A DNA stretch of 64,000 bases, taken from positions 82,214,001-82,278,000 of the forward strand of contig NC_086097.1 of NCBI RefSeq assembly GCF_963921235.1, written 5' to 3'. The stretch comes from Mobula hypostoma (taxonomy: Eukaryota). Position numbers and translations under genes: made by a program. The notes beneath the pieces were generated by a model that was not told where the DNA came from, did no database searches, and was given only the letters and a program-made list of their open reading frames with translations. Below, one piece after another: positions 2,480-59,620 of the stretch (the first letter of the stretch is position 1; each line of letters starts with the position of its first letter).

Positions 2480-5340
2480 TTAGTCCCACTCCCCCACCTT
2501 CTCACCATAACCTTTGATGCCCTGGCTACTCAGATACCTATCAATCTCTGCCTTAAATACACCCAATGACTTGGCCTCCACTGCTGCCCATGGTAACAAA
2601 TTCCATAGATTCACCACCCTCTGACTAAAAAAATTTCTTTGCATTTCTGTTCTGAATGGGTGCCCTTCAATCCTTAAGTCATGCCCTCTCGTACTAGACT
2701 CCCCCATCATGAGAAACAACTTTGCCACATCCACTCTGTCCATGCCTTTCAACATTCGAAATGTTTCTGAGGTCTCCCCTCATTCTTCTAAACTCCAAGA
2801 AGTACAGTCCAAGAGCAGACAAACGTTCCTCATATGTTAACCCTCTCATTCCCAGAATCATTCTAGTGAGTCTTCTCTGTACCCTCTCCAACGTCAGCAC
2901 ATCCTTTCTTAAATAAGGAGACCAAAACTGCCCACAGTACTCCAAATGAGGTCTCAGCAGCGCCTTATAGACCCTCAACATCACATCCCTGCTCCTATAC
3001 TCTAATCCTCTAGAAATGAAAGCCAACATTGCATTCGCCTTCTTCACCACCAACTCAACCTGGAGGTTAACCTTAAGGGTGTCCTGTACAAGCACTCCCA
3101 AGTCCCGTTGCATCTCAGAATTTTGAATTCTTTCTCCGTTTAAATAATAGTCTGCCTGTTTATTCCTTCTGCCAAAGTGCATAACCATACACTTTCCAAC
3201 ATTGTATTTCATTTGCCACTTCTTTGCCCATTCTTCCAATCTATCCAAGTCTCTTTGCAGACTCTCTGTTTCCTCAGCACTACCGGCCCCTCCACCTATC
3301 TTCATATTGTCATCAAACTTAGCCACAAAGCTGACTATTCTATAATGCAAATCGTTGATGTACAATGTAAAAAGAAGCGGCCCCAACACAGACCCCTGTG
3401 GAACACCACTGGTAACCGGCAGCCAACCAAAATAGGATCCCTTTATTCCCACTCTCTGTTTCCTGCCAATCAGCCAACACTCTCTCCACATAAGTAACTT
3501 TCCTGTAATTCCATGGGCTCTTATCTTGTTAAGCAGCCACATGTGTGGCACCTTGTCAAAGGCCTTCTGAAAATCCAAATATACAACATCCACTGCATCT
3601 CCCATGTCTAGCCTCCTTGTAATTTCCTCAAAAAATTGTAATAGGTTTGTCAGGCAGGATTTTCCTTTAAGGAATCCATGCTGAGTTCTGCCTATCTTGT
3701 CATATGCCTCCAGGTACTCTGTAACCTCATCCTCGACAATTGACTCCAACAACTTCCCAACCATGGATGTCGAGCTAACAGCTCTATAATTTCTTTTTTG
3801 CTTCCTTGCCCCTTTCTTAAATAGCAGAGTGACATTTGCAATCTTCCAGTCCTCCGGAACCATGCCAGGATCTATCGACTTTTGAAAGATCATCATTAAT
3901 GCCTCCGCAATCTCCACAGCTACTTCCTTCAGAACACGAGGGTGCATTCCATCTGGTCCAAGAGATTTATCTACCTTTAGACTATTCAGCTTCCGGAGTA
4001 CTTCCTCTGTCGTAATTGTGACTGCGCACACTTCTCTTCCCTGCCACCCTTGAGTGTCCGGTATACTGCTGATGTCTTCCTCAGTGAAGATTGATGCAAA
4101 ATACTCATTCAGTTCCTCCGCCATCTCCTTATCTCCCATTACAACTTCTCCAGCATCATTTTCTATCAATCCTATATCTACTCTCACCTGTCTTTTACTC
4201 TTTATATACTTGAAAAAGCTTTTAATATCCTCTTTGATATTATTTGCTAGCTTCCTTTCATAGTTCATCTTTTCCCTGTTAATGAACCTTCTTAGTTTCC
4301 TTTTGTAAGCTTTAAAAAACTTCCCAATCCTCTGTCTTCCCACTAATTTTTGCTTCCCTGTATGCCCTCTCCTTTGCTTTAACTTTGGCTTTGACTTCTC
4401 TTGTCAACCACGGTTTCATCCTTTTTCCATTGGAAAATTTCTTCTTGTTGGAATATACCTGTCTTGTACCTTCCTCACTTCTCGCATAAACTCCAGCCAC
4501 TGCTGCTCTGCCATCCTTCCCGCCAGTGTTCCTTTCCAGTCAACCTTGGCCAGTTTCTCTCTCATGCCACTGTAATTTCCTTTACTCCACTGAAATACTG
4601 ACACATCAGATTTCAGCTTCTCTTTTTCAAATTTCACAGTGAACTCAATCATGTTATGATCACTGCCTCCTAAGGGTTCCTTCACCTCAATCTCTCTAAT
4701 CACCTCCGGTTCATTACACAATACACAATCCAGTACAGCCGATCCCCTAGCGGGCTCAACAACAAGCTGTTCTAAAAAGCCATCTCGCAGACGTTCTAAA
4801 ATTCTCTCTCTTGAGATCCAGTGCAGACCTGATTTTCCCAATCCACTCGCATGTTAAAATCCCCCACAATTATCATAACATTGCCCTTCTGACAAGCCTT
4901 TTCTATTTCCAGTTGTAATTTGTAGTTCACATCACTGCAACTGTTTGGAGGCCTATAAATAACTGCCATCAGTGTCCTTTTACCCCTGAGATTTCTTAGC
5001 TCAATCCATAAAGATTCTGCACCTTCTATATCACCCATATCCTATATCACCTCTTTCTAATGATTTAATATCGTTTCTTACCAATAAAGCCACGCCTCCC
5101 CCTCTACCTACCTTCCTATCCTTCCGATACACCGTGTATCCTTGGACGTTCAGCTCCCAGAGACATGCATCCTTTAGCCTGAGTGATGGCCACAACATCA
5201 TACCTGCCAATCTGTAGCTGAGTGACAAGATCATCCACCTTATTCCTTATGCTGTGTGCATTTAAGTATAACACCTTAAGACCAGTATTTGGTACTTTTC
5301 GCTTTGATTTCACTGCAACTTTATTGCACTGCAACTCATC
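2480..5340 (-). pseudogene. CR1 ORF2 (APE endonuclease + reverse transcriptase), frameshifted
   Basis: VLYLNAHSIRNK, IIVGDFN, LGGSDHN (endonuclease); VYLDFQKAFDKVPH, GVPQGSVLGP, KFDDN (degenerate FADD) in the 549-aa ORF 2694-4343; split over several frames. Confidence 0.92.
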
Positions 5341-5467: not shown

Positions 5468-6401
5468 ATTAGTTTAAACCCTCCCTAACAGCTCTATTAA
5501 ACTTTCCCGCCAGGATATTGGTCCCCTTCGAGTTCAGGTGTAACCTGTCCATTTTGAACAGGTCATACTTCCTCTAGAAGAGATCCCAATTATCCAAGAA
5601 TCTGAAGCCCTGCCCCCTGCACCAGTCTCTCAGCTACGCATTCATCTGCCTGATCCTACTATTCTTGCCCTCACTAGCACGTGGCACAGGTAGCAATCCC
5701 AAGATTACTACCCTGGAGGTCCTGCTTCTCAGCTTCCTTCCTAACTCCCAGAAATCTCTCTTCAGGACCTCCTCCCTTCTCCTATCTATGTCATTGGTAC
5801 CAACATGTACCAAGACAACTGGCTGCTCGCCCTCTCCCTTCAGAATATTCTGGACCCGATCTGAGACATCCCGTACCCTGGCACCTGGGAGGCAACACAC
5901 CATGCGGGTATCTCTGTCAGGCTCACAGAATCTCCTGTCTGTTCCCCTGACTATGGAATCCCCTACGACTACCGCATTCCTCTTCTCCCTCCTTCCCTCC
6001 TACACAACAGCGTCAGGCTCAGTGCCAGAGACCCGGTCACCGTGGGCGTCCCCTGTCAGGTCATCCCCCTCAACAGCATCCAGAATAAGATAGTTGCTGA
6101 GGGGGACAGCCACATGGGTGCTCTCCACTATCTGGGCATTTCCGTTCCCTCTATTGACAGTGACCCAGTTTTCTGACCCCTGTAGCCTAGGGATGACTAC
6201 CTCCCTGTAGCTCCTGTCTATCACCTCTTCACTTTCCCTGATAAGCAGTACGTCATCAAGCTGCAGCTCCAGATCCCTAACACAGTCTCTGAGGAGCTGC
6301 ATCTCGGTGCACCTGGTGCAGATGTGACCATCAGGGAGCCTGGAGGTCTCCCAGGATTCCCACATCTGACACCCTGAACAAAGCACTAACTCTGCAGGCA
6401 T
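5468..6401 (-). pseudogene. CR1 ORF1 (Cys-rich zinc finger + leucine zipper + SGNH/GDSL esterase)
   Basis: CSGCQMWE..HICTRC, LELQLDDV, VVGDSIVRG, CLPGARVRDV, HVGTND; in-frame stops at 6000-6002 and 5634-5636. Confidence 0.9.
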
Positions 6402-6801: not shown

Positions 6802-7004
6802 TATAGTCCTGATCCAAAAAAAGACATGGGCTGAAAGGTCTTTTCTTCTACTGTATGGTTCTACGTTCTATGTTCTAGTCACTCCTAATGCAACATTTAT
6901 GATGGAAGGTCAAGGACCCTGCAAATAAATATTTTGTAATGAGAAATGCTGTGTTCTTACAAATATTTTATCATTCCAAAATTTTATGTGAATATTGTTC
7001 ATCA

Positions 7005-7290
7005 TAAACACAAGAGATTCTTCAGATGTTGGAAATCTAGATTGTTGGAGTGCTGGAGATACTCAGCAAGTCAGGCAGTATCTGTGGAAGGGCTTTTGAC
7101 TATGCAGTTGATGTTCAGGGTCGAGGCCCTTGCTCAGGGCTGGAAAGGAAGGGGAAAGAAGCCAGAATAACAAGGTGGGGGAAAGAAAAGGAGTACAAGC
7201 TGGCAGGTGATCGGTGAAACCAGGTGAGAAGAAGGCGGGTGGGTGTTGGGGTGGGGGGGTGGTGCTGAAATAAGAAGCTGGGAAGTTTAT
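7005..7290 (-). mobile_element. Penelope-like terminal repeat fragment
   Basis: tgctggagatactcagcaagtcaggcag matches the repeat at 57060-57221 in reverse; decayed hammerhead motif at ~7105-7143. Confidence 0.75.
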
Positions 7291-10159: not shown

Positions 10160-11390
10160 AATTCCAAGTACAAAGTAAATTTATTATCAGAGTACATAGA
10201 TATCACCATATACTATCTTGAGATTAATTTTCTTGCGGTCATTTAAAAGAAAATGAAGAAATGCAATTCAATTTATGAAAAAGAACAAAAAAGGACAAAT
10301 TGTACAAATAATAAAAATAAATGAAATATACTGAGTTGTAGAGTCCTTGAAAGTGAGTCTATAGGTTTTGGAGTTGGTTCAGCATTGAGGTAAGTGAAAT
10401 TATCCATGCTGGTCCAGGAGCCTGATGGTTGTTGGGCATTAAACTGCTCCTGAAGGTTGTGATGTGGGACCTAAGACCCCTGGACTTCCTACCTGATGGT
10501 AGTAGTGAGAAGAGAGCATGGCCTGGTTGATAGGGGTTCTTGATGATGGATGTTGCTTTCCTGTGGCAGCACTTCTTGTAAATGCAAATGATGGGGAGGG
10601 CTTTGCCTGTGATGGTCCGGGCTGTTTTGTGTAAACTTTTCTATTCCTGGGCCTTGGTGCTTCGATACCAGGCCGCAATACAAACAGTCAGGATCCTCTC
10701 CGCTGTGCATCTGTAGAACTTTGCCAGAGTTCTAGATGAACCTATGCAAACTTCTAAAAAAGTAGAGGCACCTTCATGCTTTCATTGTGATGGCACTTAC
10801 AGGACAGATCCTCTGATATGGTAACACCAAGGAATTGAAACTCATTGACCCTCCCCACCTTTGATTCCCTAAATACAACTAGCTCCTACCCCCTGTAGTT
10901 GATAATCATCTCTTTTTTTTTGCTGACATGAGTGAGAGGTTGCTGTTATGGCGCCATTGAACAAGATCTTCAATCTCCCTCCTATATGCCGATTTGCCAC
11001 CACTTTTGATTCGGCCAGCAATAGTGGTGTCATCAGCAAACTTTAATATGGCATTTGTGTTGTACTTAGCCACACAGTCATAGGTACAAGGCAAGCAGAG
11101 CAGAGGGCTTAACACACAGCCTTGTGGTGATGCGCCAATGGTGATTGAGGAGGAGATGTTGTTGCTAACCCAAACTGACTGTGGTATGCAAGTGAGGACA
11201 TTGAGGATCCAGTTGCACAGCGATGTTTTGAGTCCCAGGTCTTGAAGTATATTGATTAGCTTTGAGGGGATAATACTGTTGATTGTTGAGCTTTAATCAA
11301 TGAAGAGCATCCTGATGTCTGCATCTTCACTGTCCAGGTGTTCCATTGCTGAGTGAAGAGTCAATGATTTAGCATCTGCTGTTGACCTCT
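10160..11390 (-). mobile_element. Rex1/Babar LINE 3' half
   Basis: ORF 10906-11115 LSPLL..TYDCVA..KFADDTTIAGRI; Rex-type 3' UTR. Confidence 0.85.
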
Positions 11391-11392
11391 CA

Positions 11393-11528
11393 CAAACAAG
11401 AGAAATTCTGCCCATGCTGGTAATCCAAGCAACAAACACAGAACGCTGGAAAATCTCAGTAGACCAGGCAGCACCTATGGCAAAGAGTAAACGGTTGACA
11501 TTTCAGGCCGAGACCCTTCATCAGGACC
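11393..11528 (-). mobile_element. Short Penelope-derived terminal-repeat unit beginning at a hammerhead motif
   Basis: Homologous to 57087-57221; homology stops at the 5' strand of hammerhead stem I. Confidence 0.8.
11493..11528 (-). ncRNA. Minimal type I hammerhead ribozyme motif (Penelope-type)
   Basis: - strand GGTC-CTGATGA-AGG GTCTCGG CCT-GAAA-TGTC-AACC: intact CUGAUGA and GAAA boxes, 3-bp stem II, GUC cleavage triplet, 3 of 4 bp stem I. Confidence 0.7.
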
Positions 11529-13084
11529 AATCTAGCCCTCTGCTGATCTCTTGGATATCCAGGGCTTCTGGTTGGGGAAGCCTCTGAACGATTTTGTGGA
11601 CTTACACCCAATAAACAAGAGCCTTTATGAAGGCCATAACAACTGTAACAAAAAGCCTTGCTAGTCTAAACTTGTTTGGTCCTTGCAGAGAGATTCCCCT
11701 GAATTAGTGAGAATGTTACATTTTTGCAAGGAGCCTTTTAGAACATCCTTTAAAAGTTTTCTCTTCTGGTAATCTTGCTGTAGTGGATCTTGGACATGCC
11801 CAATGGAACCGCCCAAATGTAATTAAAGCCTCATTGCTGAGTAAATTAAGGCAGAGGCAGACTCTGATGTTGGTTTGCTTATCCTTCCAGTGGCTGAGAA
11901 GATGTAGCATTGGTGCTACCTTTCCAATGCTTTGAGATGCCTGTTCTAGATAGTCATGGTTTCTGAATCAAATAGGAAGGCAATGATTACCGCTGCCTGG
12001 TAGACCAACTGCTGTGTCTTAATTTTTTTCACCAAGCAATGATTTCCTTAATTAGGTTTTCTAAATTTAATTTAAAAAATCAAAGATAGTTAAATGCAAT
12101 GCTAATGAAATCTGGTTCATTTCCCAATGAACCATTCAGTCTGGCAGTAAAATACAAGGCCCATTTGGCGTAGGAAGTTAAAATTGATCACATTTAATGC
12201 AATGTATTTTCCCTGTGATTTGTAGAGTTTTGCTCTGTATTTACAGTACCTATGCCTCAGCAAACTTAAGTACTCTTTTCAGACTCAGGCCATTGGAAAG
12301 TATTTAATTTTAACCTTGGCTCTGAGAACACTCGTGCTTTAAGTGAACAATTAACCAAAAGAACAACATTGGGATTGCAGAAGTTGGGGGAGAGCAGTGA
12401 AAGGGACTTTTGGTTCGGGATTGGAAACTTGAACCTTTGCAAGTCTTGAAAAAATAATCTGTTAGCACCTAAGTTCCAAATGTGCTAAATAATACCTCTG
12501 AGATTCTTAATGTTTGAACTTGGGAATTCAATAAAGAATGAACTGCATTTAATGATGGGATTTTAAATTTAGTTCTAAAATCACCCATTACACTATCTTT
12601 TCAGCTATGATGCTGTATTTTCACCTAGAATTGCATTTAACACAAATGTGTGTATTCCATCCCCCTTAGCTGCATTGAGGTGGTGTGCTGGGTCGAACTG
12701 CACATAACAGAAGTGGCTTAATACCAGCGTGTAGTTTGCTAGACCAGTTGATAGCCAGCCACTATAGACTTCAAATGTATGATAGTAAATAGTATATTAT
12801 TGTTGAATTTTAGGAAGTTGTATGGGGGATTAAAATAAGTATCGATTGTGCATCAATATCATCAAGGGGCTTTCTGCCCAAGCTCACCAGATGTGAATGA
12901 AAAGAAAACTCAGAGACCTTAATACGTCAAAGAGATTTGTAAAAAACTACTTAGATGGGAAACAGAATATTGGTGTTCTCAAAGAGGGGATTTCTTTTGA
13001 TTCCTCTTCATTTTTCCCAAAAAACCTGTCATGATTGAGTGATTACCATTGGGAATTATACAGTTTATCTTTCTTTGCTCCTTC

Positions 13085-17522: not shown

Positions 17523-20500
17523 TCAGAATCAGAATCAGAATCAGGTTTATTATCACTGGCACGCGTCATGAAATTTGTTAACTTAGCAGCAGCAGTTCAA
17601 AGCAATACATGATAATAGATAAATAAAAATAAATCAAGTACGGTAAATATATATATGTATATTGAATAGATTAAAAATAGTGCAAAAACTGAAATAATAT
17701 ATATTAAGAAAATGAAGAAAAAGGTAAGGTAGTGTACTTGGATTCAGTGTCCATTTAGGAATCATACGTCAGAGGGGAAGAAGCTGTTCCTGAATCACTG
17801 AGTGTGTGCCTTCAGGCTTCTGTACCTCCTTCCTGATGGTAACAATGAGAAGAGGGCATGCCGTGTGTGATGGGGTTCCCTAATAATGGACACCGCTCAC
17901 TATAGGTGCCTTGGATACTCTGGAGGCTAGTACCCAAGATGGAGCTGACTAACTTTACAACTTCCTGTAGCTTCTTTCAGTCCTGTGCAGTAGCCCCCAC
18001 CGCTGCCCCCCCCCGCGTACCAGACACTGATACAGCTTGTCCAAATGCTCTCCACGCTACATCTTTAGAAAATTCTGTAAACACAAAATATTCTGCAGAT
18101 GCTGGGGTCAAAGCAACACTCACAACAAACTGGAGGATAGATGCTCAACTGATGATGCTGCCCGACCTGCTGAGTTCCTCCAGCTTGTTATGAGTACAGT
18201 ATAGAAAATTTTGAGTGTTTTAGATGACAAACCAAGTCTCTTCAAACTACTAATGAAATGGAGCCACTGTCTTGCCATCATTATAGCTGCATCGATATGT
18301 TGGGACCAGGTTAGATCCTCAGAGATCTTGACACCCAGGAACTTGAAATTGCTCTCTCTCTCTCCAATTCTGATCCCTCTGTGAGGATTGGTTCATGTTC
18401 CCTTGTCTTACCCTTCCTGAAGTCCACAATCAGCTCCTTCATCTTACTGACACAAGGTTATTGCTGCAACACCAAGCAACTAGCTGGTGTATCTCACTAC
18501 TGCATGTCCTCTCATCTCCATCTGAGATTCTACCAACAATGGTTGTATCATCAGCAAATTTATAGATGGTATTTGAGCTATACCTAGCCACACAGTCATG
18601 TGTATAGAGAGAGTAGAGCAGTGGGCTAAGCACACACCCCTGAGGTGTGCCAGTGTTGATCGTCAGCAAGGAGAAGATATTATCACCAATCCACACAGAT
18701 TATGGTTTTCTGGTTAAGAAGTCAAGGATTGAATTGCAGAAGGAGGTAAAGAGGCCCAGGTTCTGTAGATTATCGATTAGGACTCTGGGAATGATGGTGT
18801 TAAATGCTGAGCTATAGTCAATGAACAGCATCCTGACATAGATATTTGTACTGTCCAGGTGATCTAAGGCTGTGTGAAGAGCCATTAAGATTGCACCTGC
18901 CGAGGACCTATTGTGGCAATAGGCAAATTACAGTGGGTCTAGGTCCTTGCTGAGACAGGAATTCATTCTAGCCATGACCAACCACTCAAAGCATTTCATC
19001 ATTGTAGATGTGAGTGCTACTGGACGATAGTCATTAAGGCAGCTCACACTAGGCACTGGTAGAATTGCCACCTTTTGAAGCAGATGGGAAATTCCAACCA
19101 TAGCACTGAGAGGTTAAGAATGTTCTTGAATGCTCCTGCCAGTTGGTTGGCATAAGTTTTCAGAGCCTTATCAGATATTTCATTAAGTCTGCCGCCTTGC
19201 GAGGGTTCACCCTCCTTAAAGACAGCCTGAATTCGGCCTCCAAGACAGAAATCACAGGGTCACCATGTGCAGCAGGGATCTTCAAAGCTGTAGTTGTGCT
19301 CTCCCTTTCAAAGCGGGCATAGAAGGCATTGAGTTCATCTGGTGGTGAAGCATCACTGCTATTCATGCTATTGGGTTTTGCTTTGGAGGAAGTAATGTCC
19401 TGCAAACCCTGCCAGAGTTGACGTGTATCCAATGTTGCCTCCAATTTCACTCAGAGTTGTTTCTTCGCTCTTGAAAAAGCCTTTCGCAAGCTATACCTGG
19501 TTTCCTTGTTCAGACCTGAGTCACCAGACTTAAATGCCACAGATCTAGCCCTCAGCAGGTGATGACCCTCCTAGCTTTTGCTTTGGGAACGTACAGCAAG
19601 TTTTCATAGGCACACATTCATCCATGCAGATTTTAATAAAGTCGGTAACAACTGCGGCATAGTCATCCAGATTCAAAGATGAATCCCTGAGTACAGTCCA
19701 GTCCACCACTTCAAAGCAGTCCTGTAGGCACTCCTGTGCTTCAATCGTCCATACCTTCCTGGTCCTCACTACTACTGCTGCAGTCTTCAGTCTCTAACTA
19801 TACTCGGGGAGTAGAAGTACACCTAGGTGATCAGACTTCCCGAAGTGTGGGCGTGGAATAACATGGTAAGCACTCTTGATGGTGGTATAACAGTGGTCCA
19901 GTGTATTGTTTCCTCTGGTACTACAATTGATTTGTTGATGGCAATTATTTAGTGACTTTTTCAAGCTGGCCTGGTTAAAGTCCCCAAAAATGATGGTGAA
20001 GGTGTTAGAGTGTGCTGTTTTACGCATGTTGATCATTTAAAGACTATTTGACATTGGCCTGAGGTGGAAATGCTACCAAAATGATCACAGAAATCTCCTA
20101 TGGCAGGGAAAATGGACGGCACTTAATGGTGAGAGACTCCACATCTGGTGAGCAGAATTGGGACAACACTGATACATTTGTTCTCTAAGAGGAGTTGATC
20201 ATGGGGCATACACCTCCACTTCTGCTTTTGAGAGACTCGATAGTCCTTTCCTGATGGTGTGTAGTGAAGATGTCAATCTGAATCACTGTCAGGTATGGAA
20301 AGGGTTAACTAGGATTCCATGAAACAAAGGACACATGTAGTCCTAATGTCCCTCCGATTCTGCACCCTAGTTCTGAGATCTTCGATTTTACTTACCAGAA
20401 ACTGTACGCTTGCCAGAAAGATAGTCGGTATTGGGAATTGAAAACCCCATTTTCTTTAACGCAGCTGTATCCCTGACAGGCAGCCATGTTTCCTACGCGG

Positions 20501-20689: not shown

Positions 20690-20965
20690 TTGTCTGTGCT
20701 GAGCTTGAGGCCAATCAAAACTAATCCCTTCCACTTGCACATGGCCCATATCCCTTCATTTCTTGCATATTCATGTGCTTTAGTAAAAGCCACTTAAACA
20801 CCACCATTGCGTCTGCTTCCACCATCATTCCCAGCACCTACCACAGTCTGTGTAAAAAACTTTCCGTGTATATCTCCTTCAAATGTTATCCCTCTCACAT
20901 TAAAGCTATGTCTGTATAACATTAAATTGGACAACCCAGTGCATAATCCTTCATCTCTAGCTGGG
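20690..20965 (-). mobile_element. CR1 3' end fragment
   Basis: Typical CR1 3' UTR/ORF2 end in reverse (cttcagcccacgttgtctgtgctga...ccctctcacattaaagctatg). Confidence 0.7.
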
Positions 20966-20984
20966 AACAAACACTAAGCCAAAT

Positions 20985-21290
20985 GGAGCAGAATTGCTCG
21001 ATGAAGTGACACCCCAATTTACATCGGATCTCACTAATGTAGATGAGGCCGCATCGGGAGCACCAGACACAATAGACAACCCCAGCAGAATCACAGGTGA
21101 AGTATTGACTCACCTGGAGGGATTGTTTGGGGCCCTGAATGGAGCTGAGGGAGGAGGTGAATGGGCAGAAGTAACACTTGGGCCACTTGTAGGGATAAGT
21201 GCTACGAGTGAGATTAGTGGGGAAGGACGAATAGACAAGGGAATCATGGAGGGGGAAACGATCCCTGTGGAAAGCAGAGAGGGGTGGTGA
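20985..21290 (-). mobile_element. Penelope-like GIY-YIG endonuclease fragment
   Basis: ORF 20922-21113 FTCDSAGVVYCVWCSRCGLIYISE; homologous to 56390-56680. Confidence 0.85.
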
Positions 21291-21294
21291 AAAA

Positions 21295-22060
21295 ATAGTG
21301 AGGCAGCGTACATGGGTTCATTGTCCATTCAGAAATCTGATGTTGTTGGGGAAGAAGCTGGTCCTAAAACATTGAGTGTGTGTCTTTATTCTCTTGTACC
21401 TCCTCCTAGAAGGTAGTCCCTGGATGATGGGGGTCCTTAATGACAGATGCCACCTTTTTGAGGCATTATCTTTTGACGATGTTCTCAATGCTGGGGAGGC
21501 TAGTGCCCATGATGGAGCTGGCTGAGTTTACAACTTTCTGCAGCTTTTTCCAATCCTGTGCAGTGGACCCTCCATACCAGACGGTGATGCAACCAGTTAA
21601 AATGCTCTCCAAGGAACATCTGTAGAAATTTGCGAGTGTCTTTGATGACATAGTAAATCTCCTCAAACTCCTAATGAAATATTGTTGCTGTTGTGCTTCC
21701 TTTGTAATTGCATCAATACGTTGGGCCCAGGATAGATCTTCAGAGATGTTGACACCCAGGATATTGAAACTGCTTCAATGAGAACTGGTGTGTTTCCTCA
21801 GCATCTCCTTCCTGAAGTCCGCAAACAACTCCTTAGTCTTACTGACACTGAATTCAGGGTTGTTGGTACAACAGCACTCAACCAGCTGATCTATCTCTCT
21901 CCTGCACATCTCCTCATTTCCATCTGAAATTCTGCCAACAATAGTGGTGTCATCAGCAAATTTATAGATGGTACTTGAGCTGTGCCTAGCCACACAGCCA
22001 TGGGTGTAGAGAGAGTAGAGCAGTGGGGTTAAGCATGCATCCTTGAGGTGCACCACTGTT
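21295..22060 (-). mobile_element. Rex1/Babar LINE RT/3' fragment
   Basis: PLLYSLYTHGC..KFADDTTIVGRI (21775-22119); NFYRCSLESILTGCITVWYG (21466-21666). Confidence 0.88.
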
Positions 22061-31144: not shown

Positions 31145-31270
31145 CAGTCCAGTTGAAGGGTTTTGATTTGAAACACTAACTCCCATTTCTCTCTGTACAT
31201 GCTGCCTGACCCATTGCATTCCTCCAGCAGTTTGTTTCTGCTCCAGATTGCATCTGCAGTCTCTCGTGTC
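31145..31270 (+). mobile_element. Short Penelope-derived unit starting at a decayed hammerhead motif
   Basis: cagtc-cagttga-agggttttgattt-gaaac then gctgcctgacccattgcattcctccagc. Confidence 0.7.
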
Positions 31271-31790: not shown

Positions 31791-33004
31791 GGCCAGAGGT
31801 TTCCCAGCTCCCAACAAAACAGAGAGCAACTTGCAAGGAATCTGCCCATCTTTCCTCCCAAAATGAATATAAGTAGCCAGTTAAGGCAGTTACCTGCACA
31901 TGGTTTGGCTAATCTGACCCTCTTCACTGTAACAAATGTGAATATAAAAATGAAATGGAAACCAGAGAAAAGTTTTAAGTTTACTTTAAAAAAGACTGTA
32001 GCTGAATAAGAAAACTCTTAAAGTAAATTATCTGTCACTGATTTTGCTACTGAATTACAGGAGCACACTATTTTTTATGAACAGCTAAGTAGTGAGCATT
32101 CATTACATTTCAATGCTTCATTAATGTACACTTTGGGAAAATTTCCCACAATGATGAACACAGCATGAATCTCTGGTAGCTGGGTACACTAATTCATCTT
32201 TCAGGAGCTTAATAACTTAATGAGTAAAAGCAAAATCATCCGCAGTATAGTAATTAACAAAACTGATTAATGCTGCTCATGTGAATTAAATTGTTGTATT
32301 TTCCTTTTCCTCATCACCAATGCACACATTCTTTTCCTTTATGGATTGAGCTTTCAAACATAAACGTTTCTATTGAGCACTATCTAAAATTTGATTTGTT
32401 GTAAATCATGTTACAGCATTAAAAAGTTGTCATAAATCCCACCTCATGATAACAATTGGTGGGAGATAGATTTGACAAGCATGTCTGGGTTACTTGCCCC
32501 TTTGCTTATTTTTCCTTATCAGGTGGCTACAGAGTTGTTTAAAGTAACCAAAAAAGTCTGAACCATGTAAAGATTAAATCCTTTAAGATTAAATGTACAA
32601 CTGTTCTTTGGTATGTGAAGTGTATGCCACTGGTAAATGGATATACTGGTGGAAAGTTGATTGACTTGTCTTGAATGGAGAAAGATTTCAGAAAATTTGT
32701 CATATCACACATAGCTGCATATTAATAGCACTTTGACTATTTGTTTGCTTATCTTGTGTGCCGGAAGTTATATACAAATTACTTGCCATATTTCTTCAAT
32801 CTCCCATATCTCCCCACCTCAGGCATTTAATTTATTCCCAAACCATCTGGTTATTATTTTTCTGTTTGGAAAGCCTTATCACTCTAACGTGTTTTAAACA
32901 ATATACCTGAAAGTGGTGTTCAGATTATGAACCTCTGCTGTGATGCCCTCAGTTCCTCCCCATACTCTGTTGTTGATGGATTGAATAATATGCATGCTCT
33001 TACA

Positions 33005-33600
33005 TAGCAACACACACACACAATGCTGGAGGAACTCAGCAGATCAGGCAGCTGCTTTGGAAATGAATAAGCAGTCGATGTTTCCGGTTGAGGCCCTCTA
33101 CCAGGACTGGAAAAGAATGGTGGAAGATTCCAGGATAAGAAGGTAGGTGGAGGGGAAGGAGTACAAGCTAGAAGATGATAGATGCAGCCAGGTGGGTGGG
33201 GAGGGAAGGGAGATGAAACAGGAAGCTGGGAGGCGATAGGTGGAAAAGGTACAGGGCTGGAGAAGAAGGAATCTGACAGGAGAGGGCGGTGGACCATAGG
33301 AGAAAGGGAAGGGGCAGCACCAGGGGGAGATGATAGGCAGGTGAGAAGAGGGAAGAGGCCAGAGTGGGGAATAGAAGGAGGGGAAGGGAGGGGAAATAAA
33401 CTACCAGAAGTTGGAGAAATCAATGTGCATGCCATTAGGTTGGAGGCAACCTAGACAGAATATGAGTGGTCTTATCCTGGCAAGAGAGGTCATGAGCCGA
33501 CATGTCAGAATGGGAATGGGGATGGGAATTAAACTGGTTGGCCACTGGAAAATCCTGCTTTTTGCAGATAGAGTGGAGGTGCTCTAGAAAACAGTCAGCT
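33005..33600 (-). mobile_element. Penelope-like 3' part (endonuclease C-terminus + terminal repeat with hammerhead remnant)
   Basis: Homologous to 56660-57190; - strand CAGTC-CTGGTAGA-GGGCCTCAACCG-GAAAC-ATC-GACTG at 33072-33109. Confidence 0.85.
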
Positions 33601-40691: not shown

Positions 40692-43198
40692 CCTTCCTTC
40701 CTTCCTTGCACCCTTAACTCCTGGTGGAGTCATCAGGGAGCCGTCATGACAAGCTTTGCATCAGTCTGTTCCATCTGTTGTGGTTGTGTGACAGAGCCTG
40801 GGTCACCGCAAATGTTTTCCCTGTCCATTCTTTAATGTTGTCCGTCCATCTTTTCCTCTATCTACCTCTCCTTCTTCTCCCCTCCACAGTTCCTTGTAGA
40901 ACAGTCTTTGCAAGGCCACTGGATCGTGTTACGTGGCCGTACCATCTCAACTTTCTTTTCTTCACCATTGTGAGAAGGTCTTCATGGGGGCCATTGTGGT
41001 GCTGGATGGTCTTGCGGACCTGCTCGTTTGTGATGTGGTCTAGGTATGAGATGCCCAAGATGTTGCGATAGCGTCTCATTTCCAAAGCCTGAATCTTTCT
41101 CCGTAGCTCTGCTGTGAGGGTCCATGTCTTACATACGTACAGGAAGACGGAGAATACCAGTGCATGCAGGAGTCTGATCTTGTACTTCATGGTGATGTTG
41201 CTGTCCTTCCATATTGTCTTGAGTCTGGATAGTGCAGTCATCGTCTGTGCAGTTCTTGCCAGGACTTCTGGTCTTGATCCTTCATCACTGACGATTACCC
41301 CCATGTATTTGAACTGCTGCACTGTCTCAAGTTTCTGACCATGGACTGAGAAGTCTGTTGTGATGGCACAGTTAGCACTTGCCATGAGCTTGGTTTTCTC
41401 AGCCCTTATTTCCATTCCAATCTTTGTGGAAGCTCTGTCAAGATGGCTGACCAGGTTGGCCAGTTCGTCCTCTTTTCCTGCAAGTCCAACAATACTGTCA
41501 GCAAATCTTAGGTTTGTGATGTTCCTCCCCCTCCGATGCCCACATGATCTTCAAGGGCAACTCTCATGATTCGTTCCATGAAGACTTTGAAGAGAGTAGG
41601 GGAGAGGAGGCAGGCCTGATGGACTCCTACAGAGGTATGGAACCACTCCCTGATGGTGCCCTGCGCGAGCACTGCACTAGTTGCCTTGGTGTAAAGCTGA
41701 TCGATTACATGAATCAGCTTCTGTTCCACGTTGAATTTCTTCATGGTGGCCCATAAGGCATCGTGCCAGACTCTGTCAAATGCCTTCTTGAAGTCTATGA
41801 AGCCATGGTAGAACTCTCTCTGGTGCTGAAGGTGTTTCTCACAAAGGGTGCGGAGGTTGAAAATCTGCTCAGTTGTGCTTCTGCCCTTACGGAAGCCTGC
41901 TTGTTCCTCAGAAATGATGTCTTCTGCCTGAGGTCTCAGTCTGTTCAAGATGATTCTGAGCATTACCTTGCTTACATTGCTGATCAAATTGACGGTACGG
42001 TAATTCTGGCAAAGTTGGAGATTGCCTTTCTTGGGAAGCACAATGACCAGCGACTGAGTCCAAGGTGTGGGCCATTCACCTGTCTGCCAGATCTTATTGC
42101 AGATGGTGGTAAGCATGTCTATCGTGGCCTCTCCTCCATGCTTCAGCAGTTCAGCAGGGATGTTGTCAACTCCTGCTGACTTCCCGCACTTCAGTGATTG
42201 TATTGCAGCTTCAACGTCTTCACGCATGATTGGATAGTCATCCTCATTGGAAGATTTCTGCACATTCAGCACGCTTGGATCCCCTTTGCTCTGGTAGTTG
42301 TACAGTTCTGAACAGTACTCTGTCCACCTTTCCATTATTTCCTTTTCTTCTGTGAGATTTTTGCCATTTCTGTCTTGGATGGTGTTCACTTTGGCTTGTT
42401 TTTCTTTGGTAAGAGCTTTCACCAGTTGGAATGCCTTCTTTGTGTTGTTGTTGGAGAGACTGTCTTCAATGTCCGCACATTGTTCAGCTATCCACCTTTG
42501 CTTTGCTTCCTTCATTTCCCTCCTGATTTCCTTGTTGATTTTCCTGTATTCTGTTCTTCCCTCTGCTGTGTTTTTATCTTTCTTTAATTTCCTTCTTGTG
42601 TCACACGTATCCAGTATCTTGTTAGTGAACCATGGTTTAGACTTACAGTGGCTTTTCCCCAGAATCTTGCTTGCTGTTTCTGCCATCACTGTGTTAAAGT
42701 TATTTGTGGTGGTCTCCAGGTCTTCATCAAAGAGGAGTACTGGTGCAAACTTCCCCCCAAATGCTGCCTGAAATTCTTCAGAGATGGTGGGGTCTTTCAG
42801 TTTTTCAAGTTCGAATCTCATCCGGCTGTTTTTTGGCTTGTTGATTCTCTTCAAGCGCACTCTGATGTTCATCATGACAAGGTCATTGAAACTGCCCACG
42901 TCTGCTCTTGGGAATGTTCTGGTCTTCAGTCTGCTCACACTAGATTTGTGCCATCTTTGCACCAGGATGTAGTCAATCTGGTGATGTTGACCACTGGGGG
43001 CATGCCAGGTCCATCTTCGGGATGCTCTGTGCTCTTCAAGTGTGTTTGACAGTACCATGTTGTTACAACTGGCAAATTCCAGCAGGCGTAGTCCCCTCTC
43101 ATTGGAGGTGTCATTGCATGAGGGGCCGATGAGATCCCCCCACTCATTTTGTGCGTCTCTGCCCACCCTGGCATTCCAGTCACCCTGAATGATCAAAA
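40692..43198 (-). mobile_element. RTE-clade LINE, 5'-truncated, relatively young
   Basis: 562-aa ORF 41508-43196 (GDWNA, WTWHAP..QIDYIL, EEQAGFR, FIDFKKAFD) and 185-aa ORF 40858-41415; FADD mutated to FADS; (GGAA)n tail; 11-bp TSD ATGAGGAGTTT (40681-91, 43199-209). Confidence 0.95.
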
Positions 43199-45099
43199 AT
43201 GAGGAGTTTGCAAAGTTTTATAAATGAGTGCACAAGATATTAATGGATGTGCAAACATATGAGACTATCTATTTTGCATTAAGCATTTTTGTTATCTTTG
43301 TACACTGGCTTAGTAAATCTACAATTTTGATCTGGACTTACTTTATAGATGGAATGAAAGTGTTGTTTGATGTGAAGTGTTGGTGCTGGATTCCTGGAAT
43401 AATAAATGCTGATCTCATTGCAATCCATAAGAGGCTGAGAGGATAGGTTCTAGTAAACTGTATATTGGCTGTAGCATCTGAAATTGGGGCACACTCTCAC
43501 AAAAATTAAATGCTTACTTAGGACTTGAGGAGAATTAATTATATTCAACAGTTCATTAATCTTTGGAATTGTTCATGCAGAGATCTGTGAAAGTTGCCCA
43601 TGTTGAGTCTATTCCCACTCCAGAGCAGACTCCTGATGGTACTGAGCACACAAAAATCTGATGCAAAGGTAGAGTTCAGCGCAAAGATCTGCCATGAACA
43701 TATTGCATAGCAGAATGTGCTCAAGAGGTCATCTGTCTTCAGCTTGTTCCCTTTTCCTATTCCTAAATACAGCCTCTTAAACTGAAAAATCTATTACCAA
43801 TGGATGATCTGGATAAAAAGCAATTTTTCTATAAATTTTCCCTCAGATAACATAAACCTTACTTTTAGCAATTTACCCTAGGAATAACATATACTGGGGA
43901 TCAATATTAGCCACAATTTAACTCACTGGGGCCTTAGAGATTTTGACTAATTTTTGCATATGAATCTTAGAACCATGTAGTAATGACTACACTGAGATTT
44001 TCAATGGACGATGTTAATACATTCTCCAGGAACTGAATATTCACATCAAATTCTCATTAACAAATTAAAATGAAAATGGAAATAACTTCATATACTTAAA
44101 AATTCTTATCCTCAGAACAACTTTTAAATTTCATGGCTCACAGAAAGGCAACAACATATCACTGGTGTGGATAAAAGCTGGGTGCAGGAAGAGTGGCAAA
44201 AATCCTATTTTCCCCAGTTTTATTTGAAAACTAGGCATAAAATAATGTCAACATTTTCACCAAGATGAGATAACACTGTGTTTCTAAGGTTTCTTTATGT
44301 TTTATTCACTGATTTAACTGTTTAAACATAGTCCAAGGGCAATTCTCTTTATTGGTCTTCCACTAAAATATATTATTTCCTTCAAATACATAATTTTATA
44401 AGCCAAACTCAGATTCAATATGGGTAGAAGACTATTCCCAGCTCTTCTGCAATTCAAAATTTAAATCAGTTAATAGCTCCCATGCGAAATGTAAGGTATT
44501 TCACATTCTTAGTGAAAATCTGTTCCTTAATTAAAAATTCATCACTAGTAGAGATGCACCTTAATCTGTTTAAAGACCTTATCACTCTGGCATGGTCATA
44601 TATTCAGTTCCATTCTACAGGGAGTCTGCACACAGGAAGCATCATTTACTACCACAGATAATGTAACTTGATGTTTTTTTCCTTGTATGGTCACTAATGC
44701 AGTGTAACAAACAGTAGTTCATCCAAAGAGATAAAAATAAGAATTGCTTCAATTGAAATGCTTCAAAGTCTTGAATATGCCTTAATTAATGTACAGTCAA
44801 CTTCTACATTTGCATGACTCATCAACTGCTTTTAACCTTAATGTGCATAAAGACCTGCATGAGTGGAGGCTTTGAGAATAAACCCCAGAATGTTTGCAAG
44901 AGGAAAATAAACAGAATAATACCTTAAATATTCAAGATTAATGGCAATTGCTTCTCCTTTATAGGCTTCACTTGGAGCTACTCTGTGGTACCTGTGGATA
45001 GGGCAAAGGGGTGCTTGAAAGGATGGGTACTTGGATAGTTTGTGAGGTGGTGAGTTCCTTTTGCTGTTTGCATCAGGCTTCACATAGCAGTGTGAAAAA

Positions 45100-48654: not shown

Positions 48655-48750
48655 TCCAATCCTAATGAATGGTCCTTGACCAGAAACATTGACAGTTGCT
48701 CTCCACACTGATGCTACCTGACCTGCTGAGTACTTACAGTTTTTATTTAA
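48655..48750 (+). mobile_element. Old short Penelope-derived unit
   Basis: caatc-ctaatga-atggtccttgacca-gaaac-attgacag then gatgctacctgacctgctgagt. Confidence 0.65.
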
Positions 48751-50339: not shown

Positions 50340-50510
50340 ATACCACAGATGCTGGAAATCTGAAATAAACCCAGAAAATGCGAAATATGTTAAGCAGGCT
50401 GGGTCTGTTTCATTTGGCATTCTGGTAAATGAGACATTAACTCCTTTTCTCTTTCCACAAATGCTGTCTGACCTGCTGAACATTTCTTGACTTTTCTGCT
50501 TTTAGTTTCA
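50340..50510. mobile_element. Head-to-head Penelope terminal-repeat remnant
   Basis: cagatgctggaaatctgaaataaac..aagcagg (reverse) and atgctgtctgacctgctgaacatttc (forward). Confidence 0.65.
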
Positions 50511-54915: not shown

Positions 54916-55725
54916 TAGTGATTTACTGTGATCAAAAGTACCAAATAATTGCTTTATTAGTTACAGTTGATGCATGATTCAAAAAGGCAGGCAGAAGTGA
55001 AATGAATAGGAAAAGAAAATTTCAAAAATGATTCATTTCAAACCAATTATGTGTCAGGAGAACAAAACCAGACATGAAAGCTGATTTTCCTTTGTATTTT
55101 CATCACAAATTATGTTATATTTTTACAGTATGTCTTAAAACAACCTTGTTACTTTGCTTGAAGATTTCCCTTGATATGAGCTACCAATGTATGAGATACT
55201 AATTTGATAGATTAGTAATTAAGGTCCTTACTTAGGGATAAGCTCATCAGGCAAAATATGAAAAGGGTATACTAGGTAAAAGTTAACCTGCAGGAGCTAC
55301 TGACAGGAATGTCTACTCAGAGGCATTCAGAAACGAAGCTGAGTCTAAGACCCATATTTTCCTGTAATGGTAAAGGCTTTACCTGTGATGGAGTGGGCCA
55401 TATCCACTACTTTTTTGTAGGAGTTTCCGTTCAAAGATATTGGTGTTTCCATACCAGGCTGTGATGGAACCAGGCCGTATAGTCTCCAATGAACATCTAT
55501 AGAAGTTTGTCAGAGTTTTAGATGACATGCCAAATCTTTGCAAACTTCGAAGAAAGTAGAAGTACTGCTGTGGCTTCTTTGTAATATCACCTATTTGCTG
55601 GACCCCAGACAGATCCTCCAAAATGATAATGCCAAGGGAGGTAGAGTTGCTGGTCCTTTCCACTTCTGATTCCTTGATAAGGACTGGCTCATGGACCTCC
55701 TGCTTCCTCCTTCTGCAGTCAATAA

Positions 55726-57221
55726 CATGTCATTTACCCAGCTACGCCTGCCTCTTCGTTGGGTATGTGGAACAGTCTGTGCCCCAAACCTCTTCTGGTA
55801 CTGCTCCCCAACTTTTCCTTCGGTACATTGATGACGACATTGGTGCTGCTTCCTGCACCCATGCTGAGCTCGTCAATTTCATCGACTTTACTTCAAACTT
55901 CCACCCAGCCCTCAAATTCACTTGGTCTATCTCAGATACTTCTCTCCCCATTCTCGATGTCTCGGTCTCTATCTCTGGAGACAGAGTGTCCACTGACATC
56001 TTCTGCAAACCCACTGACTCTCATAACTACCTCGACTAAACCTCTTCCCACCCCACCACATGCAAAAATGCCATTCCCTATTCCCAGTTCCTCCGTCTCT
56101 GCCGCATCTGCTCCTAGGATGAGGCTTTCCGTTCCAGGACATCTCAAATGACCTCTTTCTTTAAGGATCGTGGTTTCCTTTCTACCGTCATCAATGATGC
56201 CCTCACCCGCATCTCCTCCATTTCCTGCACTTCGGCCCTCACCCCATTCTCCCGCAACCACAACAAGGACAGAGTTCCCCTTGTCCTCACCTACCACCCC
56301 ACCATTCTCCAGATCCAGCACATTATCCTCCGCAACTTCCGCCACCTTCAACAGGACCCCACCACTAAGCACATCTTTCCCTCTCCACTCCTCTCCGCTT
56401 TCTGCAGGGATCGGTCCCTCCGCGACTTCCTTATCCACACGTCCATCCCCACGGATCTCCCACCCGGCACTTATCCCTGTAAGCGCAAGTGCTACACCTG
56501 TCCCTACACCTCAACTCTTGCAACCATTCAGGGCCCCAAACAGTCCTTCCAGGTGAGACAACACTTCACTTATGAGTCTGTTGGGGTCATCTATTGCATC
56601 CGGTGCTCCCGGTGCGGCCTCCTCTACATCAGTGAAACCCAACGTAGATTGGGGGACCGCTTCGTCGAGCACCTCCACTCCGTCCGTCACAACAGACAGG
56701 ATCTCCCGGTAGCCACCCACTTTAACTCTGCTTCCCTTTCCCATTCGGATATGTCCATACATGGCCTCCACTACTGCCATGATGAGGCTAAACTCAGGTT
56801 GGAGGAGCAACACCTCATATACTGTCTAGGTAGTCTCCAGCCCCTTGGTATGAACATAGAATTCTCCAACTTCCGGTAATTCCCTCCCCCTCCCTTCCTC
56901 AATCCCTATTTCACTCTGCCCCCTCCCCCAGCTCCCTCATGGTTCCGCCTCCTTCTTCTACTACCCATTGTTTTCCTGCCTATGACGTCGATGCTTCCCC
57001 TCCCCCACCCCTTTATCTTTCAAATTACTGGTCTTTCAACTGAACCTACAAGCATTCTTCAAATCCTTCCTCCTCCTTCATTCTTCAGTCCTAATGGAGG
57101 GTTCCGGCTCGAAACGTCGACTCACCATCTTTTCCACTGATGCTGCCCGACCTGCTGAGTTCCTCCAGCGTACTGTAAGTGTTGCTTTGATCCCAGCATC
57201 TGCAGATTATTTTGTGTTTAT
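55726..57221 (+). mobile_element. Penelope-like element, 5'-truncated (RT C-terminus, GIY-YIG endonuclease, terminal repeat)
   Basis: FLRYIDD (55623-56039); GVIYCIRCSRCGLLYISET..RFVEH..LEEQHLI..PLGMN (56148-56879); 8-bp TSD GTCAATAA at 55718-25 and 57222-29. Confidence 0.95.
57087..57122 (+). ncRNA. Minimal hammerhead ribozyme motif with mutated core
   Basis: AGTC-CTAATGG-AGGGTTCCGGCTC-GAAAC-GTC-GACT: stem I and GAAAC/GUC intact, CUGAUGA box has two substitutions. Confidence 0.6.
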
Positions 57222-58047
57222 GTCAATAATATGTCTTTGGTTTTGCTGACATTTAGTGAGAATTTATTGTTGTGGCCTGATTCAGGTGGATTTTCAATCT
57301 CTCTCCTATATGCTGATTCATCAATTCCTTTGATTCGGCCAACGACAGTGGTCTCAACTGCAAACTTAAATATGGGATTGGATATGTGCTTAGCCTCATG
57401 GGCATGTGTAAAGCAAGTAGAGCACAGGCTCAGCACACAACCTGTGCTGATAGTGATTGTGGAGGTGATGTTGTTGTCAATCTGAACGGACTGGTGTCTG
57501 CAAGTGGGGAAATCAAGGATCTAGTTGCACAAGGAGGTATGGAGGCCTATGTTTTGGAACTTATTGATTAGTTTTGAGGGGATGATAGTATTGAATGTAG
57601 TCAATGAAATGCATCCTGATGTATGCATCTTCACTGTCCAGATGTTCCAGGGTTGAGTGAAGAGCCAATGCAATGGCAGCTACTGCAGACTTGTTGTGAT
57701 GGTAGGCAAATTGGAGTGAATCCAAGTCACCTCCCAGGAAGGAGTTGATGTGTTTCATCACCAACCTCTCAAAGCACTTCATCATATTTGACGTACGTGT
57801 TACTAAACAGTCATTGAGGCAAGTTGCCATGTTCTTCTTAGGCTCTGGTATAATTGAAGCCTGCTTGAAGCAAGTGGGTACCACTCACTGGTGAAGTGAG
57901 AAGGTAAAGATCTCAGTGAACACTCCAGCTGGTTGATCAGCGCCGGTCTTCGGTACTCAGCCAAGTACCCCGACTGGGCCAGATGCTTTCCGTGGGTTCA
58001 CCCTTCTGAAGGATACTCTTATGTCATCCTCAGAGACAGATATCACA

Positions 58048-58677
58048 TGTACGGGATCTTTCTTTTTTGTATGTTAAATTTAAAATGGCTTCTTTGTTAT
58101 GTTATACTGGGGAATGCTTCTTTGTTATGTTAAATGCTGAGAAAGTCTCTTGCTCGACATTTGCTTGGGCTAATACAGATAGCAGGGTGCTATCAGCCAA
58201 TGGGTGGTCATGTATCGTTTTGTTTTCGGATGATAATGCTGTCTCATATGACTGGGGACGGGGTTTTTGGCGGGGAGTCGGAGGAGAGACGGGGAGTTGG
58301 AGGAGAGACGGGGAGGACGGCGGACGTACGGAAAAGCTCCGGTTGATCATTCCGGGTGGTCCCGAGCCGTGAGTCGACAGGATTCGGGTGGTCGTCCGGA
58401 TTCGATTGAGCTCCAACAGTTGCGCACGAAGAACTTGGACTTTGATAAGTCTTGGCGCCTTTTTTTCATTATTTCCTTTTCTGTATCGAATTTATATTAA
58501 TGTCATAGACTTAGTAATATCTATAAAGTGTACTTGGTAAAACGTACTGGGTGTGCTGGCTGATGATTAATGTTTGGGATTGAGTCGGGCGGCAACCGAC
58601 TCCGTGGGAAGTGTTGAGGCAGGTGCTGGGTGGGATTTGCCCTAGACATATATGAGCCAATATAACTGAGCGTTACA
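58048..58677 (+). mobile_element. Solo LTR (630 bp), young
   Basis: TGTA...TACA ends; perfect CACA TSD (58044-47, 58678-81); CpG-rich; interrupts Rex1. Confidence 0.9.
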
Positions 58678-59620
58678 CACAGAATCATTGGGAGCTGTTG
58701 GTGTTTGTGAAGGTGCCTCCATATTTAGTTAGTCAAAGTGAGCAGAAAAGGCATTGAGCTCATCAGGGAGTGAAATCTTGTTGTTACATATGTCGTTTGG
58801 TTTTACTTTGTAGGAGATGATAGCATTCAAGCCTTGCCACGGCTTCTAGCATCCTTCTGTAATTCCAGTTTGGTCTAGAATTGCCACTTTGCATGTGAGA
58901 AGGCTTTCCAGAAGTTGTACCCGTACATCTTGCATTTTACTGGGTCACCAGACCTGAATGACACTGATCTGGCCCTCAGCAGATTACGGATCTCTTTTGT
59001 CATCCAGGACTTCTAGCTGAGGAAGATTTTAAATGATTTTGTAGGATCCCACTTGTCCACGACTGACATGAAGTCTGTTATAGCTGTGGCATGTTCGTTC
59101 AGATCCTTTGATGAGTCCTCGAATGTGGCCCAGTTCACTGACTCGAAGCAATCTGCAGCTACTGCTCTGCCTCCTGTGACCACCTCTTTGTTGTCCTTAC
59201 TCTTTAGACTCTCCCTGTATGCAGGTGAGACAATCAGATTTCCCAAAGTGCGATCTAGGGATGGAATGGTAGGCATTCCTAGTGTAGCAGTGGTCAAGTA
59301 TGTTGGGGCCCCTGGTGCTGCAGCTGACATGTTCAAAGGTTCAGTTTAATATCAGAGAATGTATACAGTATACAACCTGAAATCCTTATTCTTCGCAGAC
59401 ATCCATGAAGATGTTGATGATAATTGGGCGGAGATTTCTTCAAGCAAGCCTGATTAAAATCCCTGGCAATGATTTGAGAAGTGTCAGGGTAGGCTGCTTC
59501 TTGTTTAGTAATCACAGCACACAACATATTGAGTGCTTGCTTAACATTGGCCTTTGGCGGTATGTAAACTGCAGTCAAGATCACAGAGGAGAATTCTCTC
59601 GGTAAATACAATGAACAGCA

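Follow-up and report, generated by a model that had tools for sequence, protein, structure and literature searches.

A decayed copy of the minimal Penelope-type hammerhead motif in a solo retroelement end of Mobula hypostoma

The motif found at positions 11492-11529, on the minus strand of a 64,000-nucleotide stretch of the Mobula hypostoma genome (contig NC_086097.1; hereafter the window), is a real minimal hammerhead of Penelope-like elements (PLEs). We hold with high confidence that it belongs to the decayed solo end of a Penelope-like retroelement that is very abundant and likely of the Neptune type; the hammerhead of this element is of the minimal kind already known, is predicted to act only as a dimer and is predicted to be crippled in this copy.

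Read on the minus strand, this minimal type I motif covers 38 nt: the 5' arm of stem I (11529-11525), a CUGAUGA box (11524-11518) followed by one extra A (11517), stem II (11516-11505), a GAAA box (11504-11501), the doublet 15.2/16.2 (11500-11499), U16.1 and C17 (11498-11497, the GUC triplet ending at 11497) and the 3' arm of stem I (11496-11492). As C3 is at 11524 and C17 at 11497, the cut is predicted between 11497 and 11496. The first-pass annotation of this DNA, made from the letters alone, had quoted the bases of 11493-11528, which are indeed found there on the minus strand; one outer pair of stem I extends the motif to its full length. It had also announced an intact catalytic core, and this holds for all 11 core positions checked. 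The CUGANGA box with its one extra base—a feature of the family consensus too—is present, and so are the GAAA box and an NUH triplet (GUC). This core is the only intact one among seven related units of the window: the other four gap-free copies carry 2-3 core changes each, and the two gapped copies are broken too. Stem II had been correctly recognized but read one base out of register, since the family register leaves the A after A9 unpaired; the A-U pair that seemed to open the stem is a by-product of the C-to-T change in this copy.

A string of this kind might be hammerhead-like by chance. We searched with a descriptor blind to the family: it asks for CUGANGA, GAAA, a pairable doublet and UH, tolerates no more than one mismatch in stem I, and requires a stem II of at least 3 bp. 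Its single match in the 64-kb window is that at 11492-11529. On simulated windows, 400 for each model, the same descriptor gave 4 matches (order-1 Markov) and 6 matches (order-4 Markov), i.e. about 0.010-0.015 per window; a specific pattern, devised post hoc, gave none in 100 shuffles. A generic descriptor thus does produce some 0.01 matches per window, and the Rfam scan of the window up to E 5 returned five matches, none of them to a hammerhead family, which would both suit a chance origin. But the window holds six homologous units, sister copies follow an ORF, and the majority read from hundreds of contigs agrees with the motif, as described below. We give the chance reading next to no probability; the existence of a repeat family and the position after a Penelope ORF refute it.

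The motif is part of a unit of 139 nt (11391-11529, minus strand), a pseudo-LTR with tail that represents the solo 3' end of a Penelope-like element; the unit starts at the hammerhead and ends 106 nt past C17. Over these 139 nt it matches 57088-57222 at 71%. The window contains in all seven related units with a hammerhead remnant, and one inverted two-part piece without hammerhead. The sister at 55737-57222 (plus strand) is a 5'-truncated element with a reverse transcriptase (RT; YIDD), a thumb, a CX3CxxC linker, a GIY-YIG domain, a 3' UTR and the 3' end in common with 11391-11529; the stop codon of its ORF is at 56877-56879 (plus strand), and its hammerhead (57086-57123, plus strand, core broken at G5 and A9) lies 211 nt past the stop of this broken RT/GIY-YIG frame. 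The one at 33003-33599 (minus strand), also 5'-truncated, is made of a GIY-YIG remnant (33599-33407), a UTR and a short 3' end; there too the hammerhead (33072-33109, minus strand, core broken at A6, G8 and A9) is preceded by the endonuclease remnant. The earlier view of the unit as Penelope-derived is supported by these two sisters. The unit at 7003-7142 (minus strand; hammerhead at 7105-7142, core broken) is the nearest copy on the same strand, 4.35 kb off. Three older units, all on the plus strand, are at 31145-31260 (3' end approximate; hammerhead 31145-31182 heavily decayed), 48657-48739 (G5>A and an additional base in the hammerhead) and 50418-50479 (boundaries approximate; stem II deleted). 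The two halves of the piece without hammerhead (18078-18195) are inverted, 18078-18137 lying on the minus and 18153-18195 on the plus strand.

The 5' ends of the units vary: about 1350 nt upstream of the hammerhead at 57086, about 500 nt at 33072, within a pyrimidine-rich UTR at 7105. As for the 3' ends, three units have a long one in common with the inverted piece, the tail of a further unit is a variant, and the remaining three break off about 35-45 nt earlier. Truncation at 5', an optional tail of 30-40 bp and inverted pieces are described features of PLEs (PMC8557442), and the window units, with their 5' truncation, two 3' end lengths and inverted piece, match them.

With a Hypanus sabinus protein the ORF at 55737-56879 shares 81% identity, with two shark proteins 62% and 56% (12 matches, 444-2000 aa). 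Its Pfam match to GIY-YIG is weak (E 0.045, below the cut-off), YIDD and GIY-YIG-like motifs being present in the one ORF; in its homologs RVT_1 and GIY-YIG are present, again below the Pfam cut-off. Among database proteins, the one named "divergent protein kinase domain 1C isoform X2" (P0001) is Penelope RT/GIY-YIG sequence over its length, and its name is probably a misannotation. A CX2-5CxxC motif is given for Neptune elements, Nematis also having a linker finger (PMC8557442); the CX3CxxC linker, a single motif, suggests that the element is likely of the Neptune type, which was preferred to Poseidon on account of this linker. Two other observations concern the same elements. Past the hammerhead, at 57139-57171, an ATG that opens the frame MLPDLLSSSS comes after a pyrimidine tract, and similar frames exist in three sisters; this is possibly the start of the ORF of the element or the end of an intron. 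Besides, a further Penelope-type ORF fragment (linker region) lies at 20961-21299 (minus strand) with no hammerhead end downstream.

The consensus proposed in the first-pass annotation is borne out by two sources, the window majority and hundreds of contigs from four sequencing runs. Apart from three CpG sites and a single A/G position, where either base can pair with U, the majority read from the five gap-free window copies is identical to it. When contigs of the four runs were aligned to the sister element (55500-57500), their loose ends before 57128 (695, 517, 152 and 69 contigs) yielded this majority again over stem II and everything up to and including the 3' arm of stem I (agreement 0.53-0.63); at the CpG that follows GAAAC, G and A both occur. 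G5 is restored in the contigs, 57093 reading G in 98% of the depth of run X1. The two sisters from which that consensus was partly drawn, 33072-33109 (minus strand) and 57086-57123 (plus strand), do contribute the C that follows GAAA as well as the stem I arms, but the CUGANGA box is broken in both. Copies of the family are very numerous: at 80% or more, 102,306 pieces of contigs in run X1 and 56,923 in run X5 align to 55500-57500, counts that include the host LINE flanks.

The family fold has a stem I of 5 bp, an unpaired A after A9, a stem II of 4 bp with a CUCG loop, closed by G10.1-C11.1 in the window majority and in the contigs, and a loopless ACGU helix III. Helix I of the consensus forms 5/5 pairs and is closed at 2.1-1.1; ACGU is read in the 57086 copy and in the CpG-resolved consensus, with a self-duplex of -3.1 kcal/mol. 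The family consensus fits the one published for minimal hammerheads (min-HHR), i.e. CUGANGAH, G...C, GAAAN, a palindrome and NUH (PMC4209133, Fig. S3).

The same architecture was found outside the window by scanning metagenomes for the hammerhead core, with at least 122 loci listed, of about 460 stretches; among the matches listed, 129 in number, 93 are distinct 38-mers with full flanks. Pairs were tallied where the search pattern leaves them free. In stem I, 2.1-1.1 is kept in 87 of the 93 listed motifs, 2.2-1.2 in 86, 2.3-1.3 in 66 and 2.4-1.4 in 47, against shuffled means of 40, 46, 38 and 32; in stem II, 10.3-11.3 is kept in 80 and 10.4-11.4 in 64 (shuffled means 39 and 44), and the pairs 2.5-1.5 (27/93) and 10.5-11.5 (37/93) are at chance level. 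These motifs reach a covariation score of 0.58; shuffled they score 0.16, and slid no more than 0.17, a difference that relatedness between motifs can inflate. A Penelope-type ORF remnant is present at 24 of the 122 loci (among the matches listed), and the 3' body of the window family at none of the 122 listed. The metagenome motifs are those of other animals' families, and support the architecture rather than this family in particular.

A covariance model built on the 93 motifs returned 24 matches at E≤10, with the 11492-11529 copy at the top (E 0.014), that at 57086 next (E 0.049), and no match at this threshold for the remaining window sisters. As the invariant columns of the model come from the search pattern, that is from the earlier consensus, only its stems are independent. 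The first-pass annotation had called for a search by descriptor or covariance model; 11492-11529 thus comes out as the sole match of the former and the top match of the latter. Minimal hammerheads were also seen in pairs on metagenome contigs, close by on opposite strands at L014 and L059 (53 nt offset), L089 and L110—pairs of this orientation are described in PMC4209133; on L024/L025 the two share a strand and are separated by about 1 kb. At L012:323 the motif lies about 550 nt upstream of the start of a Penelope-type ORF, i.e. in the 5' pseudo-LTR. One match on a viral contig has no stem II; it was taken as chance.

The copy at 11492-11529 differs from the family consensus at seven positions, three of which are of the CpG type and fall at paired sites flanking the core; CpG observed/expected for the whole window is 0.29. 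G1.1>A creates a C·A mismatch at the pair 2.1-1.1 adjoining the cut site, where helix I is open; C11.1>U leaves a G•U to close stem II at 10.1-11.1; C15.2>U changes the palindrome ACGU to AUGU, which forms a tandem wobble only (self-duplex +1.2 kcal/mol). In a double-hammerhead fold model these three changes cost, per dimer, +6.6, +5.2 and +4.3 kcal/mol respectively, and the outer stem I changes 0.0. The homodimer of this copy is at -3.8 kcal/mol in this fold versus -19.3 for the consensus, energies that only rank the copies, because ViennaRNA favours an alternative fold even for the consensus dimer (-34.9 vs -19.3). G10.1•U11.1 occurs in several published min-HHR representatives (PMC4209133, Fig. 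S3), so that C11.1>U alone need not kill the hammerhead; U-G at 15.2-16.2 is absent from the 56 rows of the same figure. On account of the C·A mismatch we file the copy as a decayed member of the family, not a working one.

This copy is probably impaired. The first-pass annotation had suspected as much from the C-to-U change after GAAA, which understated the case: three paired positions are altered, and this change is the least costly of them. Likewise, the ACGU palindrome that it described is that of the family consensus and of the 57086 copy, not of the present one. Most likely, the intact core is luck in a neutrally decaying repeat. The outer stem I of this copy shows an apparent switch from A-U to G-C, the one instance within the family; we set it aside as evidence since it concerns one copy, at the host junction, where it could be host-derived or due to chance.

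Could such a copy still work? It might be the enzyme half of a mixed dimer, cutting other family transcripts in trans: its core alone is intact among the seven units, its 5' arm forms 5/5 pairs (two of them wobbles) with the consensus 3' arm, and AUGU makes four pairs with ACGU. But the double-hammerhead fold of the mixed dimer with the consensus reaches just -4.3 kcal/mol, the nearest same-strand copy, at 7105-7142, is distant as well as broken, and published dimers cut poorly even when intact (PMC4209133). Moreover, Pfam found in the 145 window ORFs of at least 85 aa only retroelement-type domains and no host-gene exon, a survey that short exons escape. We regard this activity as very unlikely. 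The idea can be widened to solo Penelope ends with intact cores in general, which would be trans-acting hammerhead halves: helix III being a palindrome in common and stem I being family-specific, a transcribed solo copy would cut element transcripts or host RNAs bearing a copy. We find this highly improbable. If true, a copy like that of 11492-11529, with the enzyme half intact and the substrate half broken, would cut without being cut, and in a genome with very many copies this might constitute a ribozyme-based brake on the Penelope-like element.

The unit lies in a dead host LINE, remnants of which are found on the minus strand at 11530-11597 upstream (PNQKPW region; homology to other copies up to 11530) and at 10902-11390 downstream (reverse transcriptase, Pfam RVT_1 E 1.8e-11). 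Compared with the LINE copy 57226-59046, less its 630-nt insert, about 640 nt of the host LINE are missing, and no target-site duplication is evident in this comparison. The LINE sequence gives way to the unit precisely at position 2.5 of stem I. This might suggest a non-autonomous element, SINE-like or retrozyme-like, whose 5' end is fixed at the hammerhead and which is mobilised as such; several window units are short, and a preprint (Li et al. 2026, 10.64898/2026.07.22.740005) argues that animal retrozymes derive from PLE pseudo-LTRs. At the opposite, the 5' ends of the units vary, as described, and the window has no tandem arrangement. Besides, other copies of the host LINE continue with CAGT or CTGT, which resemble the stem I arm, so that a join by microhomology or a later deletion, together with the loss of LINE sequence, can explain the boundary; and a 5' end made by the ribozyme would fall after GUC, not before the core. 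An origin as a unit of this kind is therefore, in our opinion, unlikely.

Some observations were made on the LINEs themselves. The 630-nt insert, at 58048-58677, has TG...CA ends and a 4-bp TGTG duplication, and looks like a solo LTR. Contigs of three runs join 55725 to 57234, likely the empty site of the element of about 55737-57222, which is itself inserted in a LINE copy, as the unit at 11391-11529 is. Two open stretches of 569 codons, at 2697-4403 and 41511-43217 (both minus strand; RVT_1 E ~1e-25), are relatively young LINE copies, and an OSK/GDSL-lipase-like match at 5637-5999 (minus strand) is, we presume, possibly the ORF1 esterase of the first of them.

We come back to the preferred reading, that of a decayed solo end of a Penelope-like element. 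Going by published work, two family motifs would pair through ACGU to form a helix III of 4 bp in common, each 5' arm of stem I pairing with the 3' arm of the partner; such a dimer would cut after GUC, slowly, and probably with the help of a protein. As in the Anolis element described below, the RT would begin at a point some 106 nt beyond the cut site, with uncut or re-ligated RNA as its template, and read through the hammerhead. The new copy would be truncated, or later deleted, back to stem I, and methyl-CpG decay would then alter G1.1, C11.1 and C15.2. The ribozyme fold probably persists in master elements and erodes once a copy has inserted.

The earlier claim that the family was processed by its ribozyme is, on the other hand, unsupported. 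Sequence from either side of the cut site is present in the 11391-11529 unit, whose template was therefore uncut or re-ligated; this span, seen directly, argues against the window copies being products of processing. Monomers of min-HHR do not cut, and intact dimers do so only weakly (PMC4209133). For PAc, the Poseidon element of Anolis carolinensis and the sole Penelope element with in vitro data (Frangieh et al. 2024, PMC11167929), cleavage by the hammerhead needs protein, hammerhead mutants inserted normally in vitro, and no RNA-seq reads are reported to start or end at the hammerhead site; the RT starts internally at two sites, which define the tail.

The minimal hammerhead was described in 2014 in pseudo-LTRs of metazoan PLEs (Cervera & de la Pena, PMC4209133), and the window family resembles it in most respects: type I topology, CUGANGA and one extra base, a G...C stem II, GAAA, a C-G palindrome without loop 3, a GUC triplet, a U-rich 5' flank, a position after RT/GIY-YIG and a majority of solo 5'-truncated copies. 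It differs in its short stem II (4 bp, CUCG loop). The 11492-11529 copy has lost the pair 2.1-1.1, the same that is disrupted in the deletion mutant of Fig. S6A of that work. Like PAc, the window family has its hammerhead in a pseudo-LTR, and its genomic copies extend past the cut site to end at one of two nearby points (the optional tail); unlike PAc, which was assayed in vitro, the window element carries a Neptune-like CX3CxxC linker and is known from its sequence. The palindromic, minimal stem III is shared with the PLE hammerheads that cleave as dimers (Lunse, Weinberg & Breaker 2016, via PMC6765202 and PMC6466107), and would imply a dimer here too. Unlike these dimers, the 11492-11529 copy has no tandem partner nearby, and no run of two or more consecutive hammerhead units exists in the window, the nearest same-strand copy being 4.35 kb off. 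Non-LTR retrozymes, reported in one chondrichthyan genome (10.64898/2026.07.22.740005), also have a type I hammerhead and a PLE pseudo-LTR origin; they form tandem arrays with a hammerhead in each unit, whereas the window units are dispersed solo ends.

Since the motif class has been known since 2014, the single copy at 11492-11529 is ordinary and matters little. In the open-access literature we found no report of a Penelope hammerhead in a shark or ray, and cartilaginous fishes appear neither in Table S1 nor in the 56 rows of Fig. S3 of PMC4209133; the window family extends the published min-HHR to these fishes. Being present in so very many copies, this family would be a fitting one for the question of cutting in vivo, to be addressed through intact young elements rather than through the copy described here.
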